DNA of 64,000 nt from Gammaproteobacteria bacterium (GTDB taxonomy: Bacteria > Pseudomonadota > Gammaproteobacteria > Eutrophobiales > Eutrophobiaceae): the NCBI GenBank assembly GCA_965116495.1, contig OZ220696.1, forward strand, positions 1,888,001-1,952,000, in the 5' to 3' direction. Numbering within the stretch: the stretch's first letter is position 1; each line of letters begins with the position of its first letter. The notes under the pieces are model-generated. The model did not search any database. It had not been told where the DNA came from and saw only the letters and a program-made list of their open reading frames with translations. Position numbers and translations under genes: made by a program. Positions 57,365 through 64,000 of this stretch are shown here, one piece after another.

Positions 57365-57399
57365 AAATCTGAGATACAATTCAGCTGGACTAAATATTT

Positions 57400-57439
57400 G
57401 GGCCTGTAGCGGGGCCGCATGGCGGCAAGGTTAGAGCAG
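57400..57439 (+). pseudogene. Degenerate duplicate of the tRNA-Ile 5' half with a hairpin insert
   Basis: GGGCCTGTAGC-[GGGGCCGCATGGCGGCAA]-GGTTAGAGCAG versus GGGCCTGTAGC-TCAGTT-GGTTAGAGCAG. Confidence 0.7.
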
Positions 57440-57498
57440 GGCAACCCGCCAGGGTTACGTGTATGATCTGCCGCAATATATTTAATTTGTAATAGTTT

Positions 57499-57821
57499 GG
57501 GCCTGTAGCTCAGTTGGTTAGAGCAGTGGACTCATCAAAAATGGTGCGTTCATATCGAAAGATATGAAATGAACGGGATGAATTCAGGGAAACCTTAACC
57601 CGCCTGCCCACCAGGACAGGAGGAATGGCAACCCTGAGCCAAGCCGGGGGTACACCCCCGGAAGGTGCAGAGACTACCTGGGAACTGAAGTGTTCTTAAT
57701 ATCAGGCTAGAGCGTCCCGTACCCTAACATTTGGTTGAGGGTAGTGAGATAGTCCGCTCCTTTTAGAAATAAAAGGATAAAGTGAATCCATTGGTCGTAG
57801 GTTCGAGTCCTACCGGGCCCA
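57499..57821 (+). tRNA. tRNA-Ile2 (anticodon CAT, lysidine type), exons 57499-57535 and 57785-57821
   Basis: Joined exons fold as a cloverleaf: acceptor GGGCCTG/CGGGCCC, anticodon arm GTGGA-CTCATAA-TCCAT, T-arm GTAGG-TTCGAGT-CCTAC; C4-G69/C5-G68 and post-rpoD position favour Ile2 over Met. Confidence 0.92.
57536..57784 (+). ncRNA. Group I self-splicing intron (IC3-like), 249 nt, no ORF
   Basis: P1 with U-G splice pair, P2 and P9 GAAA hairpins, P3 ACGGGATG/CGTCCCGT, P and Q elements, P7 GACTA/TAGTC, terminal G at 57784. Confidence 0.92.
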
Positions 57822-57923: not shown

Positions 57924-60263
57924 TCACACAACTGACACCGGTTCCGGCCTGGCCATGCGGTAGCCGACCGCGCGCACGTTCTGGATGTAGACCGGCAGGG
58001 CCGGGTCATCACCGAGCTTTCGGCGCAGTTGCTTGACAAAGGTACGGACCCGGTCCTGGTCGCCCGATTCAGGACCGTTCCATAGTTGGCGGATCAGCGA
58101 GTCGTAACTGACTACGCGTCCCGCGTTCACCGAGAGGATGTGCAGCAGCTCGTATTCGGTAGCGGTCAGATCTACCGGGCGGGCGGCCATGGTCACCCGC
58201 CGCTGCTCGTACTGGATGGCGAGGTCGCCGAGTACGAAGGGTTCCAGTTCGGTGCGCCTGCGCAGGGCAGCACGGACCCTCGCCGTCAGTTCCGTCGCCG
58301 AGAAGGGCTTGACGATATAGTCGACAGCGCCCTGTTCCAGCGCCTTGGCGATTGTCTCGTCCCGGCCATAGGCAGAGATGAAGATGACTGGAGTGTCGGC
58401 GATCTCCGAGGTACTTTGCATGATCTCGATGCCGTCGGCGCCGGGGAGGATCAGGTCAAGCAAGACCAGGTGGGGCTTCTGCGCCTGAATGATCCGGGGC
58501 AACTCGTTGTAGTCACCGGTCACAATCGGGGAGTAGCCGGCCCGATCCAGTGCGTCGCGAACGAAGCGGAGTATCTGCGGGTCGTCATCCAGCACCAGGA
58601 TGGGCGGGCGCTCGCTTCCCTGCTGGGAGGGGCGGTATTGATCACGAACGCCGCCGGCCTCTTCGGCTACCGGAATCGTGAAAGTGATTTGTGTCCCCCG
58701 GCCCGGCCCGTCGCTGTGCGCCTGGATGCGGCCTCCGTGGGCCTCCACCAGCCCCTTGCAGATGGCCAGCCCCAGACCGCTCCCGCGCCTGTCATCGTCG
58801 CTGAGGATCGTGTACTTGCGGAACAGGCGCGGGAGTTGCTCCGACGGTATCCCTTCACCCTCATCTGTGACCGTGACTGCCACGTGCAGGCCCTCGCGTA
58901 ACCCGGCGACCCGGATAGGAGAGGTACCGAGAGAGAACCTGGAGGCATTGGAAAAGAGGTTGCTCAGCACCTGTACGATGCGCCCCCTGTCGGCGAGCAC
59001 ACGGGGCAGGTCCTGCGGAAGGTCGATCAGGATCGTGTGCTTGCTGCCGCCGCTCAGGAAAGCATTCCTTGCCTGGTCCACCAGTGCGGCCAACTCGACA
59101 GGCGCTGGTGAGACGGACAGTGTGCCCGCGTCGATGCGGCCCGCGTCCAGGAGGTCGCTGATCAGGCCGCGCATGTGATCGGCCTGCTCATCGATGATGC
59201 GAAAGAACTGGTTCACCTCGCCCGGGTCCAGCGCAGAAGAGGCATCCAGCAAGGTGGTGGTCGAGCCCTTGATGGCAGCGAGCGGCGTGCGTAACTCGTG
59301 GCTGACCATGCCCAGGAACTCCGCCCGCAACCTGTCCAGTTCCTCCAGTTGCGCCAGGTCCTGCATGGTGACCACCACCGAGTCGACTTCGCCCTGTGCG
59401 GAACGGATGGGCGTGACGTTGAGCAAGGTGGTGACGCTCCTGCCGTCAGGAACCGATAGCACGACTTCCTCGGCGCGCATGGTCTCGGCTGTCGTTAATG
59501 TTTGTACGCCCGGATACTCGCTCAACGATACCTCGCGCCCATCGGTGAGCCGGCACGTGATCACCTCAATCAGTTCCTCCATGGACTTGCCCGGCATGCG
59601 CAGACCTTCGCCAATCCGGTTGGCCTCCCGGTTGAACGATACCGGCATGCCGGTCCTGGCGTCGAACACTACCACGCCCACCGGCGAGGTCTCCACCAGG
59701 GCCTCGAGGTCGGCCCGCGCCCGCTGCTCGTCGCGGTGCGTGCGGGCATTGGCGATGGCCGTCGCCGCCTGTGACGCGAACAACACCAGCACCTCTTCGT
59801 CCTGGTCCGTGAACGCCTGCCCGCTTTCCTTACCGGCGAGAAAGAAGTTGCCGACATGCATGTCGCGACGACAGATCTGCGTGCCCAGGAAGGTCTCGGA
59901 CAGAATCAGGTCCTCCGAGTAGCCGAGCGAACGGATATAAGTGGACAGGTCTGCCAGCCTCACGACTCCCGACACATCGCGCAAGTGTTCAATGAGCCGC
60001 GGGGTATCGGGGTTTTGCTCGAATTTTTGGTGCTCTTCGCCGGTGAAGCCGGAACTCACGAAGTCCTGGATTTCCCCGCTTTCTCCATAGGTGGTGATGA
60101 TGCCGTAGCCGGCACCGGTCAGGGCGCGGGCGCTGTCCACCACCTCCTGCAGGACGGTGTCAACGTCAAGGCTCGCGCTGATACGCAGGATCGCCGCACT
60201 CAACTGCGAGAGCCGCTCCTGCAGCGCCTCGAGATCCCGCGTATTTTCTTTGCGATCAACCAT
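57924..60263 (-). CDS. Soluble hybrid sensor kinase/response regulator (GAF-PAS-HisKA-HATPase-REC-winged HTH)
   Basis: SHELRTPL, NLFSNA, DEGEG, GSGLGL, VLDDD, LLDL, KPF, LTATEYELL, LRRKLG, VRAVGY; no TM segments evident. Confidence 0.9.
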   Translation of the reverse strand: MVDRKENTRDLEALQERLSQLSAAILRISASLDVDTVLQEVVDSARALTGAGYGIITTYGESGEIQDFVSSGFTGEEHQKFEQNPDTPRLIEHLRDVSGVVRLADLSTYIRSLGYSEDLILSETFLGTQICRRDMHVGNFFLAGKESGQAFTDQDEEVLVLFASQAATAIANARTHRDEQRARADLEALVETSPVGVVVFDARTGMPVSFNREANRIGEGLRMPGKSMEELIEVITCRLTDGREVSLSEYPGVQTLTTAETMRAEEVVLSVPDGRSVTTLLNVTPIRSAQGEVDSVVVTMQDLAQLEELDRLRAEFLGMVSHELRTPLAAIKGSTTTLLDASSALDPGEVNQFFRIIDEQADHMRGLISDLLDAGRIDAGTLSVSPAPVELAALVDQARNAFLSGGSKHTILIDLPQDLPRVLADRGRIVQVLSNLFSNASRFSLGTSPIRVAGLREGLHVAVTVTDEGEGIPSEQLPRLFRKYTILSDDDRRGSGLGLAICKGLVEAHGGRIQAHSDGPGRGTQITFTIPVAEEAGGVRDQYRPSQQGSERPPILVLDDDPQILRFVRDALDRAGYSPIVTGDYNELPRIIQAQKPHLVLLDLILPGADGIEIMQSTSEIADTPVIFISAYGRDETIAKALEQGAVDYIVKPFSATELTARVRAALRRRTELEPFVLGDLAIQYEQRRVTMAARPVDLTATEYELLHILSVNAGRVVSYDSLIRQLWNGPESGDQDRVRTFVKQLRRKLGDDPALPVYIQNVRAVGYRMARPEPVSVV

Positions 60264-60469: not shown

Positions 60470-61609
60470 ATGACTTCAGAATCAGGCACATCCGCCGGCT
60501 TATCGGAGCCCCCCGTTCTGGTCACCGGCTCTGCCGGGCACGTAGGCGCCAACCTCGTGCGCAGGCTGCTCGACGACGGCATCCGGGTACGGGTGTTGCT
60601 GAGACACGAGGACAACAACGAGGCATTGGAAGGACTCGAAGTCGAACGCACGTTTGCTGACATCCGGGATCTGGATGCCACCCGGCGCGCACTGGAAGGC
60701 TGCCAGGGCGTTTATCACGTAGCAGCCAAGATCTCAACCATCGAAGGCAACCACGCCCATCGCCGCGAAGTATTCGAGTGCAATGTCCTCGGTACCCGCA
60801 ACGTGCTGCAGGCTGCGCGGGAGGCGGAGGCCGGCCGGGTGGTGGTGACGGGATCATTCAGCGCGGTCGGTTATGACCTGGATGACCCGTCGGCGCCCAG
60901 TGACGAGACCATGCAGTTCTACCCCATGGAACGCACGATGCCCTACGAGCGCAGCAAGACACTGGTCGAGCATGAATGCTGGCGCGCCGCGGCAATGGGG
61001 CAGGATGTCATTGTCGCCACCTGTTGTGCCGTAATCGGGAGCGCCGATTTTTTCCCCTCGCGCCTGGGCAGGACCTTGTGCGACTACACCAACGGCAAGC
61101 TCCGTGCTTACGTGGATGGCGGTTTCGAGTTCGTCGCGGCGCGGGACATCGTCGAAGGACACCTGTTGTGCATGCGCCATGGACGCCCGGGCGAAAAGTA
61201 CATCTTCAGCAGCGAGTACAAAACCATTTCCGAGATCCTGGACCTGTACGAGGAGGTCTCGGGCATCCCGCGACCGCGCAGGCGGATACCGATCCCGATG
61301 ATGCTCGTCTTCTCGGAGGTGGCGAGCTTTTACCTGAGCCGGTTTCACCCGGGTTTCAACCAGCGTTTCACCCCTGGCGCCATCCGCCTGTTGAAAAAGT
61401 GCCGCCACGCCAACATCGACAAGGCGAAACGGGATCTGGGCTACCAGCCCACCAGTATCCGCGCCGCGGTGCACGAGGCCTATGCGTTCCACTACCAGCG
61501 CAACGCGATCAGGAACCCGCGCGCGAAACGCCCGTACGTTGACGCCGTGAGTCAGCCGGAAACTCTCAATCCGGGCCAGGGTATCCAGGTATCTACCGAA
61601 GGGGCTTGA
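60470..61609 (+). CDS. NAD(P)-dependent 3-beta-hydroxysteroid dehydrogenase/epimerase-like SDR (SdmB-like candidate)
   Basis: TGSAGHVG, YHVAA, NVLGT, YERSK. Confidence 0.8.
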   Translation: MTSESGTSAGLSEPPVLVTGSAGHVGANLVRRLLDDGIRVRVLLRHEDNNEALEGLEVERTFADIRDLDATRRALEGCQGVYHVAAKISTIEGNHAHRREVFECNVLGTRNVLQAAREAEAGRVVVTGSFSAVGYDLDDPSAPSDETMQFYPMERTMPYERSKTLVEHECWRAAAMGQDVIVATCCAVIGSADFFPSRLGRTLCDYTNGKLRAYVDGGFEFVAARDIVEGHLLCMRHGRPGEKYIFSSEYKTISEILDLYEEVSGIPRPRRRIPIPMMLVFSEVASFYLSRFHPGFNQRFTPGAIRLLKKCRHANIDKAKRDLGYQPTSIRAAVHEAYAFHYQRNAIRNPRAKRPYVDAVSQPETLNPGQGIQVSTEGA

Positions 61610-61610
61610 T

Positions 61611-62696
61611 ATGAACCCGGCATCATGTGCGCCACCCGGCTTCGATGAAGCCCGCACCCTGCGCCAGCAGGCGCGGGCCGCGGGCATGGACCCGGATTAC
61701 TGGTACGCGGTCGAGGAAGTGCGCCGGGTTAAACCGGAGACCGTGGTCGAGATTGTTTTCTGGAAGCGTTCCATAGCCCTGTACCGGGCGAAAGACGGCT
61801 CGTTTCACGCTATGGATAACCGCTGTGCGCACCGGCAACTCAAACTTTCCCTGGGCGATGTGCAGGGTTGCCGGCTGGTGTGCGCCTACCATGGCTGGGA
61901 GTATGATGAAAACGGGGTCCCCTACAGCCGGTCCGGGCAGGGCCTCAGGAACCTCGCGCTGAGGACCTATCCCATACAGGTCCGCTACGGCCTGGTCTGG
62001 CTGTTTCCCGGGGATCCGGAGCGGGCGCGGCAGCGCGAAATCCCGGATATTCCTGAACTCGAAGGCCCATCCCGGTGGGCCTGTGTACCGCTGAGCTTCA
62101 CCTGGTCAGCGCACCACTCGATGGTGATCGACAACGTCAGCGACTTCACCCACGCCCACCTGCACCGCCGCTACCGCCCCTTTGACGATGCCACCCTCAC
62201 CCGCTGCGAGACCGACGGCGACAACGTGCATCTCGCCTACGACACGCAAGTCGGGCGCGGGCCCGTCTCCAGGCTGTTCGTCGACCACAACCGTATCGAC
62301 ACCAACCACATGGAGCTTTGCTACCAGTACCCCTACCAGTGGTCGAATACCGATGACGAGATAAAACACTGGCTGTTTGTGCTACCCATCGATGAACGCA
62401 CCACCCGGGCGTTTTTCCTGTTCTACTTCCGGTCGCTGAAAATCCCCGTTCTGCCGGTGAGGATCCCCCGGTTCGCCATGACCACGGTTATGAAGATTTC
62501 GAACCGCATGCTTATCGGCCCGTTACTCAGCCAGGACGGCGTTGCGGTCGAGGCGGAGCAGCAGGGGTACGAGAGGCACTGGGATGCCCCTCCCTTCGAG
62601 TTCAACCCGGTCGTCAAGGCTTTTCAGGATGTGACCGTGCGCAAGTGGCGGGAACACCTGGCGCGCACAAACGGGAGCGGTGATGCCGGGGCCTGA
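61611..62696 (+). CDS. Rieske oxygenase (SdmA-like sterol C-4 methyl oxidase candidate)
   Basis: CAHR..CAYHGW; DNVSDFTHAHLH; QDG; sterol assignment rests on context. Confidence 0.8.
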   Translation: MNPASCAPPGFDEARTLRQQARAAGMDPDYWYAVEEVRRVKPETVVEIVFWKRSIALYRAKDGSFHAMDNRCAHRQLKLSLGDVQGCRLVCAYHGWEYDENGVPYSRSGQGLRNLALRTYPIQVRYGLVWLFPGDPERARQREIPDIPELEGPSRWACVPLSFTWSAHHSMVIDNVSDFTHAHLHRRYRPFDDATLTRCETDGDNVHLAYDTQVGRGPVSRLFVDHNRIDTNHMELCYQYPYQWSNTDDEIKHWLFVLPIDERTTRAFFLFYFRSLKIPVLPVRIPRFAMTTVMKISNRMLIGPLLSQDGVAVEAEQQGYERHWDAPPFEFNPVVKAFQDVTVRKWREHLARTNGSGDAGA

Positions 62697-63783
62697 GCCG
62701 CACTTTCTGTTGTCCGCGCTGTCCGGCGCCGCCCTGCTCAAGGCGGCGGCTATGCTGCTGGTGTTTACCGGCGGGTTGTTCCTGGGTTCCATGCTGCTGC
62801 CCGGACGCCGGATTGCCGGGACGGACCTGGAGGGAACACCACACGAATACAGGCTCAACGGCCTCGCCCTGTTCCTGGCAACCGTGATTGCGGCAGGTCT
62901 CGTCCAGGTCTCCGGCTGGTTCTCACTTTCCACGTTGTATACCCACTTTGCCGCCTTGTTCGTGGCGGCCAACGTACTTGCATTTGCGCTTGCCGCCTGG
63001 CTGTATTACCGGGCCGCCCTGACCCGGGACTCAGCGCCGGGAATCCGGCCGAGCTTCTTCTATGGCGTGGAGTTCAATCCAACCGTGCTCGGGGTGGATT
63101 TGAAGCTTTTCAGCTACCGCCCGTCCCTCATCGGCCTGGCGCTGTTCAACGCATCGTTCGCCGTAGTGCAATACGAGACCTACGGCGGGCTGACCCTGGC
63201 AATGGCGCTGTACCAGGTCTTCACCTTCTGCTACGTGCTCAACTACTTCCAGTTCGAATACGGCATGACCCACACCTGGGACATGGTCAGCGAGCGCTTC
63301 GGCTGGATGCTGATCTGGGGGGACTACGTGCTGGTGCCGTTTTTCTATTGTCTCGCCGGCTGGTGGCTGGTCCACGCACAGCAACCGCTGTCTCTAATCG
63401 CCACCGCGGCGATCGTCATGTTGTTCATCATTGGCTTCTGGCTGTTCCGCGGCGCCAACGAGCAAAAACACCGCTTCAAGCGCAATCCCGGCGTGTCGAT
63501 CTGGGGACAACCCGCCCGGTCGCTGGACGGGCGCCTGCTGGTCTCCGGATTCTGGGGGATCGGACGGCATCTCAACTATACCGGTGAGATCTGCATCTAC
63601 CTCGCGTTCGCCCTCACCACGGGGTTCGGATCCTGGGTGCCTTACCTGTTGCCCGCGTGGCTGGCGCTCCTGTTGTGGCATCGCTCAAAACGTGACGATC
63701 GCCGCTGCCGCGCCAAGTACGGCGAACTGTGGGGACGCTACACGCAGCGGGTGCGGTATTCAATGCTGCCGTATGTCTACTAA
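62683..63783 (+). CDS. Sterol reductase, ERG24/ERG4/LBR family (probable delta-14 reductase)
   Basis: YRPSLIG, TWD..ERFGWMLIWGD..VPF.Y, LLVSGFWG..RHLNY.GE, HR..RDD.RC..KYG..W..Y, PYVY. Confidence 0.9.
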   Translation: MPGPEPHFLLSALSGAALLKAAAMLLVFTGGLFLGSMLLPGRRIAGTDLEGTPHEYRLNGLALFLATVIAAGLVQVSGWFSLSTLYTHFAALFVAANVLAFALAAWLYYRAALTRDSAPGIRPSFFYGVEFNPTVLGVDLKLFSYRPSLIGLALFNASFAVVQYETYGGLTLAMALYQVFTFCYVLNYFQFEYGMTHTWDMVSERFGWMLIWGDYVLVPFFYCLAGWWLVHAQQPLSLIATAAIVMLFIIGFWLFRGANEQKHRFKRNPGVSIWGQPARSLDGRLLVSGFWGIGRHLNYTGEICIYLAFALTTGFGSWVPYLLPAWLALLLWHRSKRDDRRCRAKYGELWGRYTQRVRYSMLPYVY

Positions 63784-63789
63784 CCCGCA

Positions 63790-64000
63790 ATGTCACAGCA
63801 ATCCGACAGCGTAGCCAGCCTGCATTCGGTGCAACCCCCGCCGCGGGCGGCAACAGCCGTTCCCTTGATCGGGGGCGGATGGCCGTTAATCGGCCACCTG
63901 CCGGGCTTCCTGAAGGATCCGGTCTCGATGTTGAGCCGCGGCTGGCGCGAACAGGGTGAACTCGTCCGGTTCCGTATCGGTCCCCGTAATTTTGTCCTGT
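63790..64000 (+). CDS. Cytochrome P450 N-terminus (CYP51-like), truncated by the window end
   Basis: Not in the ORF track; MSQQ..GGGWPLIGHLPGFLKDPVSMLSRGWREQGELVRFRIGPRNFVL matches the P450 Pro-rich N-terminal region. Confidence 0.75.
   Translation, partial: MSQQSDSVASLHSVQPPPRAATAVPLIGGGWPLIGHLPGFLKDPVSMLSRGWREQGELVRFRIGPRNFVL

Follow-up and report, generated by a model that had tools for sequence, protein, structure and literature searches.

Does the bacterium that carries this DNA make sterols of its own, or would it only remodel those of a host? The question arises at the end of a 64,000-nucleotide window (contig OZ220696.1; G000:C1:1888001-1952000) of a gammaproteobacterial genome, here called G000 (4.34 Mb, a single contig, 99.5% complete, GC content 0.547), where a preliminary description had seen a four-gene set for the post-lanosterol steps of sterol synthesis. 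G000 was compared with 22 other genomes of its genus (G-numbers denote these 23 genomes, L-numbers individual loci or contigs) and with 543 related stretches from a scan of species-representative genomes. Counts out of 80 refer to the best 80 of those stretches, which are 62–97% identical to the operon; their neighbouring genes were counted within 10 kb, several of the loci end at contig ends, and a few belong to the genus. We consider it probable that G000 holds, behind a tRNA gene, an intact six-gene operon whose enzymes convert endogenous squalene into C-24-methylated sterols, probably of delta-8 type, with likely horizontal arrival of the operon in what is likely a sponge symbiont. This kind of six-gene cluster is already known, having been published from sponge-dwelling bacteria since 2020.

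The operon and its predicted products

The four genes at the window's end are forward-strand open reading frames (ORFs) separated by a 1-nt gap, a 17-nt overlap and a 6-nt gap, and their coordinates agree with what had been described (Table 1). Reading past position 64,000, which the preliminary description had recommended, recovered the full CYP51 gene, a squalene epoxidase–oxidosqualene cyclase fusion and a sterol C-24 methyltransferase (SMT), together with an unlinked DHCR24-like gene. Cyclase and epoxidase had rightly been placed outside the window: they start 1.2 kb beyond its end, fused as one gene. The notion of a post-lanosterol set was thus supported by the enzymes and incomplete as a description, since the operon also holds the fusion and the SMT. 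Genes 3' of the SMT are unrelated, and GC content falls to 0.46 there. A promoter and terminator scan did no better than shuffled sequence (1 versus 3.5, and 6 versus 10.2).

Profile and PDB matches upheld the family assigned to each of the four genes. For the short-chain dehydrogenase/reductase (SDR) and the Rieske oxygenase, proposed to be of SdmB and SdmA type, the best NCBIfam models were indeed SdmB (NF052578; 295.5 bits, next HpnA at 228) and SdmA (NF052579; 390 bits over profile positions 4–343 of 351, next family 33 bits), albeit under the curated cut-offs of 600 bits each. The closest other SDR in the genome is just 31% identical. On this basis the SDR is likely a C-4 decarboxylase/3-keto reductase and the Rieske protein a likely C-4 methyl oxidase. 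An aromatic-degradation or KshA-type role for the latter was rejected on the family scores and because solved Rieske enzymes of aromatic degradation give matches no better than E 4e-16; the grouping with such enzymes that would have told against a sterol role was therefore not seen. A distinct KshA_C Rieske protein recurs in 7 of the 80 loci. The third gene, the sole ERG4/ERG24 family member found in the genome, adjoins CYP51 and likely encodes a delta-14 reductase: both of its PDB matches are delta-14 reductases (4quv, delta(14)-sterol reductase, E 1e-69). CYP51 gave 58 PDB matches at E ≤ 1e-30, the best at 4e-101; all but one of the top 56 are named CYP51 or sterol 14-demethylase, as had been suggested from the gene's start, and the 57th, a different P450, scores 1e-38. 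Its CYP51 matches are full-length, and it carries AGQHTS and FGGGKHRC, which we take to be the I-helix and heme motifs. It lacks a C-terminal ferredoxin fusion, matching residues 7–450 of the 551-residue chain 6mcw.

The N-terminal 300 residues of the fusion align with human squalene monooxygenase, and its C-terminal part matches human lanosterol synthase (E 6e-133) far better than squalene-hopene cyclase (SHC; 2.5e-52). The cyclase scores 729.8 bits with TIGR03463 against 264 with TIGR01507, and passes the broader TIGR01787 (500 bits, cut-off 323). Residues H232, W387, V453, D455, C456, Y503, C533, W581 and F696 are kept, the catalytic Asp and the lanosterol-type V453 among them. H232 is accompanied by the motif VxDCTAE, presumably the oxidosqualene cyclase acid motif, in place of which SHC has DxDD. 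In the part of Wei 2016 available, V453 by itself is enough to predict lanosterol in every bacterium tested.

Elsewhere in the genome there are a squalene synthase-type gene (L003:1381-2421), an HpnD-like gene, a squalene-hopene cyclase (L005:1387-3459) and a DXP reductoisomerase (DXR). Because the fusion lies in the operon and squalene synthase and DXR lie elsewhere in the genome, synthesis de novo, beyond the remodelling of host sterols alone, is likely; the earlier alternative of making or remodelling sterols leans to making them, since fusion and squalene synthase are present. As the genome has a squalene-hopene cyclase in addition to the squalene synthase-type gene, a common squalene pool would serve both hopanoids and sterols.

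Judging by tested homologues, the fusion would epoxidise squalene and cyclise 2,3-oxidosqualene to lanosterol, CYP51 would take off the 14-methyl group and the reductase would clear the delta-14 bond; the SdmA/SdmB-like pair would strip one or both C-4 methyls, and the SMT would put at least one carbon on C-24. The unlinked DHCR24-like enzyme would then reduce the side-chain double bond, the ring remaining delta-8. The EBP, ERG2 and FA_hydroxylase families had no match in the genome, where neither a C-8 isomerase nor a C-5 desaturase turned up. Because these and a second ERG4/24-type reductase were not found, a fecosterol- or ergost-8-enol-type product is expected, not a delta-5 sterol; a near-complete single-contig genome allows such a prediction from absent genes. 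The number of C-4 methyls removed varies among relatives: SdmAB homologues take off none, one or both depending on the organism, according to the accessible text of Lee 2023 (PMC10202945). The SdmA and SdmB described there from Methylococcus capsulatus, Calothrix sp. NIES-4105 and Enhygromyxa salina are likewise a Rieske protein and an SDR in a sterol context. The G000 pair falls below the methanotroph-model cut-offs. The SdmB of the published cluster from the Chromatiales of T. swinhoei (TsSOB) is 54% identical to that of Calothrix, which with SdmA removes both methyls, and 43% to that of M. capsulatus, which removes one. Double C-4 demethylation by the G000 pair is thus plausible.

Table 1 Features of the sterol operon, its tRNA site and unlinked pathway genes. 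Plain positions refer to the window; those with C1 refer to the whole contig.
Feature	Position	Strand	Remarks
SdmB-like SDR (msbA equivalent)	60470-61609	+	379 aa; NF052578 295.5 bits; 80% to TsSOB cluster gene
SdmA-like Rieske oxygenase (msbB equivalent)	61611-62696	+	361 aa; NF052579 390 bits
ERG4/ERG24-family reductase (msbC equivalent)	62680-63783	+	367 aa from GTG; PF01222 242 bits
CYP51 (msbD equivalent)	window 63790-64000; whole gene G000:C1:1951790-1953199	+	469 aa
Squalene epoxidase–oxidosqualene cyclase fusion (msbE)	C1:1953196-1956603	+	1135 aa; GTGA overlap with CYP51
Sterol C-24 methyltransferase, SMT (msbF position)	C1:1956681-1957706	+	341 aa
Hybrid GAF-PAS-HisKA-HATPase-receiver-winged-helix histidine kinase	57924-60263	-	divergent from operon
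tRNA with CAU anticodon	57499-57823	+	right 3' of rpoD; left island edge; ARAGORN with introns
Group I intron	57536-57784	+	249 nt, directly after anticodon; Rfam RF00028 84.8 bits, E 4.6e-21
Squalene synthase-type gene	C1:3690429-3691469	-	PF00494 196 bits
Desaturase-like gene	C1:2010710-2012182 (pair: L159:6711-9752)		PF00487; ~53 kb beyond SMT
DHCR24-like gene	C1:2012195-2013751		next to desaturase-like gene

The tRNA site and probable horizontal transfer

The window had been read as entering an acquired island, downstream of a tRNA and of visibly higher GC. GC content is 0.623 across the six-gene operon against the genome mean of 0.547, with 5 of 471 equal-sized genome windows as high, and the site proved to be empty in relatives: in G004 and G009 the pdxH block lies within ~200 bases of rpoD, whereas in G000 an island of ~53 kb (C1:1945824-1998696) separates the two, with the operon at its head. 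Besides kinase and operon, it holds catabolic genes, insertion sequence remnants, a 123-residue phage-integrase fragment and a type ISP restriction gene. G014 and G015 share downstream island blocks at 90–96% identity without the operon; G015 keeps two scraps at the kinase gene. The genomes closest by RpoD (91%), G001 and G019, gave neither the fusion nor SdmA. Among the 22 other genus genomes the fusion was found in 10 and SdmA in the same 10, so that with G000 both occur in the same 11 of 23.

The distribution of divergence between G000 and G022 points to recent movement. Long syntenic core matches in three regions are 76–87% identical, and ~24 kb from the tRNA onward are 94.7–96.5% identical. 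Measured as the fraction of differing third codon positions per gene, divergence is 0.40 for dnaG and 0.34 for rpoD. In five operon genes it lies at only 0.044–0.082, in the kinase gene at 0.077 and in the SMT gene at 0.117. Third positions change more than first and second positions in every operon gene, which fits working genes. In fusion trees (quick method, unrooted, frameshifted L033 left out), the copies of G000, G016 and G022 group with other Gammaproteobacteria, away from seven other genus copies. Holding seven genus fusion rows together was rejected in a 19-row quick tree (approximately unbiased test, AU p 8.8e-7), the constrained group being taxonomic, yet tested after the first tree was seen. 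Because the trees are unrooted, we claim neither donor nor direction. These data support the idea that the operon likely moved between species recently by horizontal transfer. Misassembly was not supported: in four DNA runs of one study, depth is similar for contigs on rpoD and for those spanning the operon, and G022 has the same layout.

The tRNA itself is real, with the hybrid kinase gene sitting between it and the operon. ARAGORN at default settings returned 0 tRNA genes; once introns were allowed, ARAGORN and Rfam RF00028 together recovered an intron-split tRNA, and the view that no tRNA lies upstream was rejected. The label Gln(ctg) given by ARAGORN likely reflects a shifted intron placement, since intron-less relatives read cat. 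The intron ends agree with the joint at L001 1536/1786 in intron-less DNA contigs, which are probably from other organisms and are no evidence of splicing. By its position, and given the other three CAU tRNAs, this is likely tRNA-Ile2; were it the sole tRNA-Ile2, AUA codons could be read only after splicing. In Azoarcus, the anticodon loop of tRNA-Ile is known to hold a group I intron. Across the rpoD loci of the genus (20 loci scanned out of 23 genomes), the intron is present in 9 and the tRNA(cat) is uninterrupted in 11. The tRNA-plus-intron stretch is 94–97% identical between G000 and G015, G016 and G022, though rpoD is ~83% identical. No att-type repeat of the tRNA 3' end was found; the one fragment seen, immediately upstream (57395-57498), is a degenerate duplicate of the 5' half of the tRNA; it is doubled in G022 and may be an integration scar.

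Homologues of the hybrid kinase adjoin sdmB in 4 of the 80 loci at 62–97% identity, including the close operon relatives L011 and L012, and the kinase is a possible candidate regulator of the operon. The island also contains a low-GC M10 metalloprotease-like gene with RTX and FG-GAP repeats (L002:11421-13523; G000:C1:1975420-1977525).

Methyltransferase clade and unlinked genes

The SMT carries a Sterol_MT_C domain, and its motifs YEYGWGESFHF, LDIGCGIGGP and YEWCMT are the same or nearly so in plant SMT1 rows. Its relatives form 20 protein clusters at 69–93% identity, below which identity drops to ≤50%; they make up a clade separate (support 1.0) from that of most cassette SMTs, including that of TsSOB. 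The G000 protein is 37–49% identical to the cassette SMTs. Just 2 of the 80 loci share its clade. As the nearest operon relatives (L010–L012, L031) carry the usual convergent SMT, replacement of the SMT is inferred. In G020 and G002 this clade sits apart from the operon. A third SMT clade with the altered motifs MVFGWNESLHF and QEMCMT was seen at L109–L111 (G015, G018, G014), flanked by a KshA-type Rieske gene and a GPP34-P450 gene, with no cyclase found; these loci are possibly a host-sterol modification unit.

Further along the chromosome, a desaturase-like gene and the DHCR24-like gene form a pair, inserted between phoH and ybeY in G000 and at another site in G022. Each is present in only these 2 of the 23 genus genomes, and their third-position differences between the two genomes, 0.059 and 0.046, are like those of the operon. 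Within 10 kb of the fusion, the desaturase occurs in 6 of the 80 loci (Porisulfidus/Chromatiales, Nitrospirales, Binatia), in 4 of the 6 beside DHCR24, and two further genomes have it beside DHCR24 away from the operon. It was present in 11 of the 80 cyclase-bearing genomes and in 0 of 399 other genomes from a class-wide sample, a contrast confounded by habitat and kinship. A metagenome scan with the single protein gave no match; a profile scan gave 54 loci, with an SMT or the operon adjacent in 5 (L177, L180, L185, L209, L222) and a KshA-type Rieske gene at L174. Most of the remainder are short or eukaryote-looking, and several bacterial ones have no sterol neighbour. A core role is opposed by its not being found in 69 of the 80 cyclase genomes or in G016, and by eukaryote-like relatives at 34–47% identity that show no sterol context. 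Reading L189 as a ciliate gene under genetic code 6 was not supported, as the matched stretch needs no recoding. At L173:1532-2626 and L175:3816-4937, a FAD-dependent protein of 365–374 residues lies directly upstream of the desaturase homologue.

The protein has three His boxes and an Asn four residues before H329; H167, H171, H209, H213, H214, H329, H362, H365 and H366 are invariant in 39 rows. Its structural model (predicted local distance difference test score, pLDDT, 87) shows an AlkB-like fold, aligning with AlkB at Z 14.3 (root-mean-square deviation 4.3, 288 residues aligned) and with SCD1 at Z 5.8; Foldseek with this model gave no match at E ≤ 0.001. A precedent for a long-spaced di-iron desaturase of PF00487 acting on sterols is offered by the Tetrahymena thermophila non-P450 sterol C-22 desaturases DES22A/B, as described in the available text of Sanchez Granel 2022 (PMC9485055). 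The Asn resembles the third motif described there for the DES22 group, SCD and AlkB; because SCD and AlkB share it, it is no sign of a sterol substrate. Homology to Tetrahymena DES22 was not established, with no named Tetrahymena or fungal protein among the matches listed. The literature yielded no report linking the desaturase to these clusters, though subscription papers and supplements may hold one. The gene is a candidate for a non-P450 sterol desaturase.

G000 also has unlinked homologues of genes that neighbour the operon in other genomes. An amine-oxidase-type flavoprotein (77% identity; L230:8724-10085, G000:C1:3730723-3732084), with homologues beside the operon in 26 of the 80 loci, could supply a missing sterol step. 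A GPP34-domain–P450 fusion (41%; L231:6641-8527, G000:C1:180640-182526) has homologues beside the operon in 25 of the 80 loci, and also beside stand-alone SMTs in several genus genomes. An MMPL/RND protein (27%) with LolA-like neighbours (45–52%; L232:5547-10601, G000:C1:1227546-1232600) scores far under the BstA cut-off; MMPL homologues are among the operon's flanking genes in 22 of the 80 loci, and the G000 protein is possibly a sterol or hopanoid exporter.

Alternative readings and published clusters

Several observations weigh against synthesis of delta-8, C-24-methylated sterols by this operon. Both the Rieske protein (390 bits) and the SDR (295.5) fail the cut-offs of their models, and E. 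salina SdmAB alone removed no methyl (Lee 2023, PMC10202945, accessible text). The cyclase stays below the TIGR03463 cut-off (730 of 851) and departs from human lanosterol synthase at four positions (Y98 to M, T381 to A, C449 to H, N697 to F), where T381 is replaced by A beside a one-residue gap, or by G if the gap is placed otherwise. The four changes are invariant in 87 of 87 homologues, as is V453 (D455 is G in 2); the eukaryote-type set T381, C or Q449, V453 is thus not matched, A (or G), H and V being present in 87 of 87. In the accessible text of Mohanty 2020 (PMC7074536), the product of such cyclases was assigned by one valine alone. The SMT reads IEAMAHAT against IEATCHAP in plant and algal rows, and its clade occurs in G003 and, broken, in G019, where no cyclase was found (in G003, no SdmA either). 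The ERG2 search matched no control genome, which makes the absence of that family weak.

The cyclase substitutions bear on one alternative, in which synthesis is de novo and the cyclase forms another protosterol (parkeol or a delta-7 isomer), so that the end products differ. M98, A381, H449 and F697 are clade-wide, and position 381 is among three product-controlling residues in Wei 2016 (as partly available). Against this stand the constant V453 and the linkage of CYP51 with a delta-14-type reductase in 74–75 of the 80 loci. Such linkage fits a delta-8 lanosterol substrate, and we regard a different protosterol as improbable. Also unlikely, if somewhat less so, is a reading in which the tailoring genes, chiefly the SMT and the DHCR24-like/desaturase pair, work mostly on sterols from the host or the diet, and de novo synthesis contributes little. 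Of the 12 genus genomes with no match to the cyclase, 5 have SMT homologues (G003, G014, G015, G018, and G019 with its TGA-broken copy), the SMT is farther from that of G022 than the other operon genes are from theirs, and an SMT from a Chlamydiae metagenome-assembled genome (MAG) without synthesis genes is active (Brown 2023, PMC10070321, accessible text). The intact fusion, CYP51 and squalene synthase argue the other way. Moreover, C-4 and C-14 demethylases have little substrate among fully demethylated host sterols.

Another possibility concerns purpose, the chemistry being the same: the operon may feed the sterol core of a glycosylated or oxidised secondary metabolite of sarasinoside type in place of a membrane lipid. 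Such a role was proposed for the msb gene set (Mohanty 2020, accessible text), and G000 also has the squalene-hopene cyclase and, as genes whose homologues recur beside the operon, the GPP34-P450 fusion and flavoprotein. By record title the operon occurs in seven phyla, which suits a general role in lipids better than a metabolite tied to one host, and the island ORFs that were scanned showed no glycosyltransferase, so we give this possibility little weight. Synthesis of C-24-methylated sterols from endogenous squalene remains the preferred reading, with a sponge as the likely host of G000, judging by its relatives.

The MAGs that carry the best 80 stretches are titled Gamma- and Alphaproteobacteria, Nitrospirales, Binatia, Thermodesulfobacteriota, Bryobacterales/Vicinamibacterales, Opitutales and Palauibacter; several of their names derive from sponges. 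In the best 80 loci, sdmB, sdmA and the reductase are each present in 75, CYP51 in 74 and an SMT in 57. L022, L023 and L029 have a variant without CYP51 between reductase and fusion. Broken or interrupted copies (frameshifts, insertions, TGA in the SMT) occur in L024, L056, L066, L013, L085 and L104; the cassette decays in some lineages.

As far as the available texts of three published systems go, the likeness is close. The msbA-F genes described from a gammaproteobacterium symbiotic with the sponge Melophlus sarasinorum (Mohanty 2020, PMC7074536) have the same six functions in the same lettered order, with a bifunctional epoxidase/cyclase bearing the lanosterol-type Val and squalene synthase elsewhere. 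G000 is likened to them by description only, and the accessible text has no tRNA-island context or recent transfer. Kelly 2022 (PMC9531527) found clusters of steroid genes (CSGs) in 115 of 537 Ircinia MAGs from 10 phyla and reported that they are transferred horizontally and kept under purifying selection. Their ERG24-CYP51-LSS core is preceded by 'DFR' and a hypothetical gene and followed by an SMT. The features shared by msb genes and CSGs recur in G000: SDR, Rieske, reductase, CYP51 and cyclase in that order on one strand, a fused ORF with V453, and an SMT at the 3' end. The CSG SMT is usually on the opposite strand, whereas that of G000 is co-directional and of another clade; desaturase, DHCR24, tRNA, island and integrase do not appear in the main text of that paper. 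Brown 2023 (PMC10070321) describes clusters from TsSOB, Aplysina and Nitrospira in which, as in G000, one gene serves for ERG1 and ERG7 and the named sdmA and sdmB, ERG11, ERG24 and ERG6 are adjacent. The first five operon proteins are 71–80% identical to those of the TsSOB-titled record L076, the SMT just 43%. The TsSOB cluster as published has its DHCR24 gene two numbers from the SMT, the gene between being absent from Supplementary Data 1; in L076 that slot holds a desaturase homologue. Homologous SdmAB pairs (Lee 2023, PMC10202945) and bacterial SMTs (Brown 2023) were active when expressed, activity being shown for 8 of 10 symbiont SMTs, in so far as these texts are accessible.

That bacteria can make 24-alkyl sterols matters for how sterane biomarkers are interpreted and for the source of sponge sterols, a point already in print (Brown 2023, PMC10070321, accessible text). 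G000 adds evidence that the operon was likely transferred recently at a defined tRNA site, a hot spot, which sharpens a published conclusion, together with a separate SMT clade and a candidate gene for ring or side-chain desaturation that these clusters otherwise lack. More tentatively, and on balance doubtfully, such pathways may be built from swappable modules, in which an undescribed non-P450 membrane di-iron sterol desaturase (acting at C-22, or standing in at C-5) travels with the DHCR24-like reductase and, with the separate-clade SMT, would allow bacteria to make eukaryote-like 24-alkyl, further-unsaturated sterols de novo.

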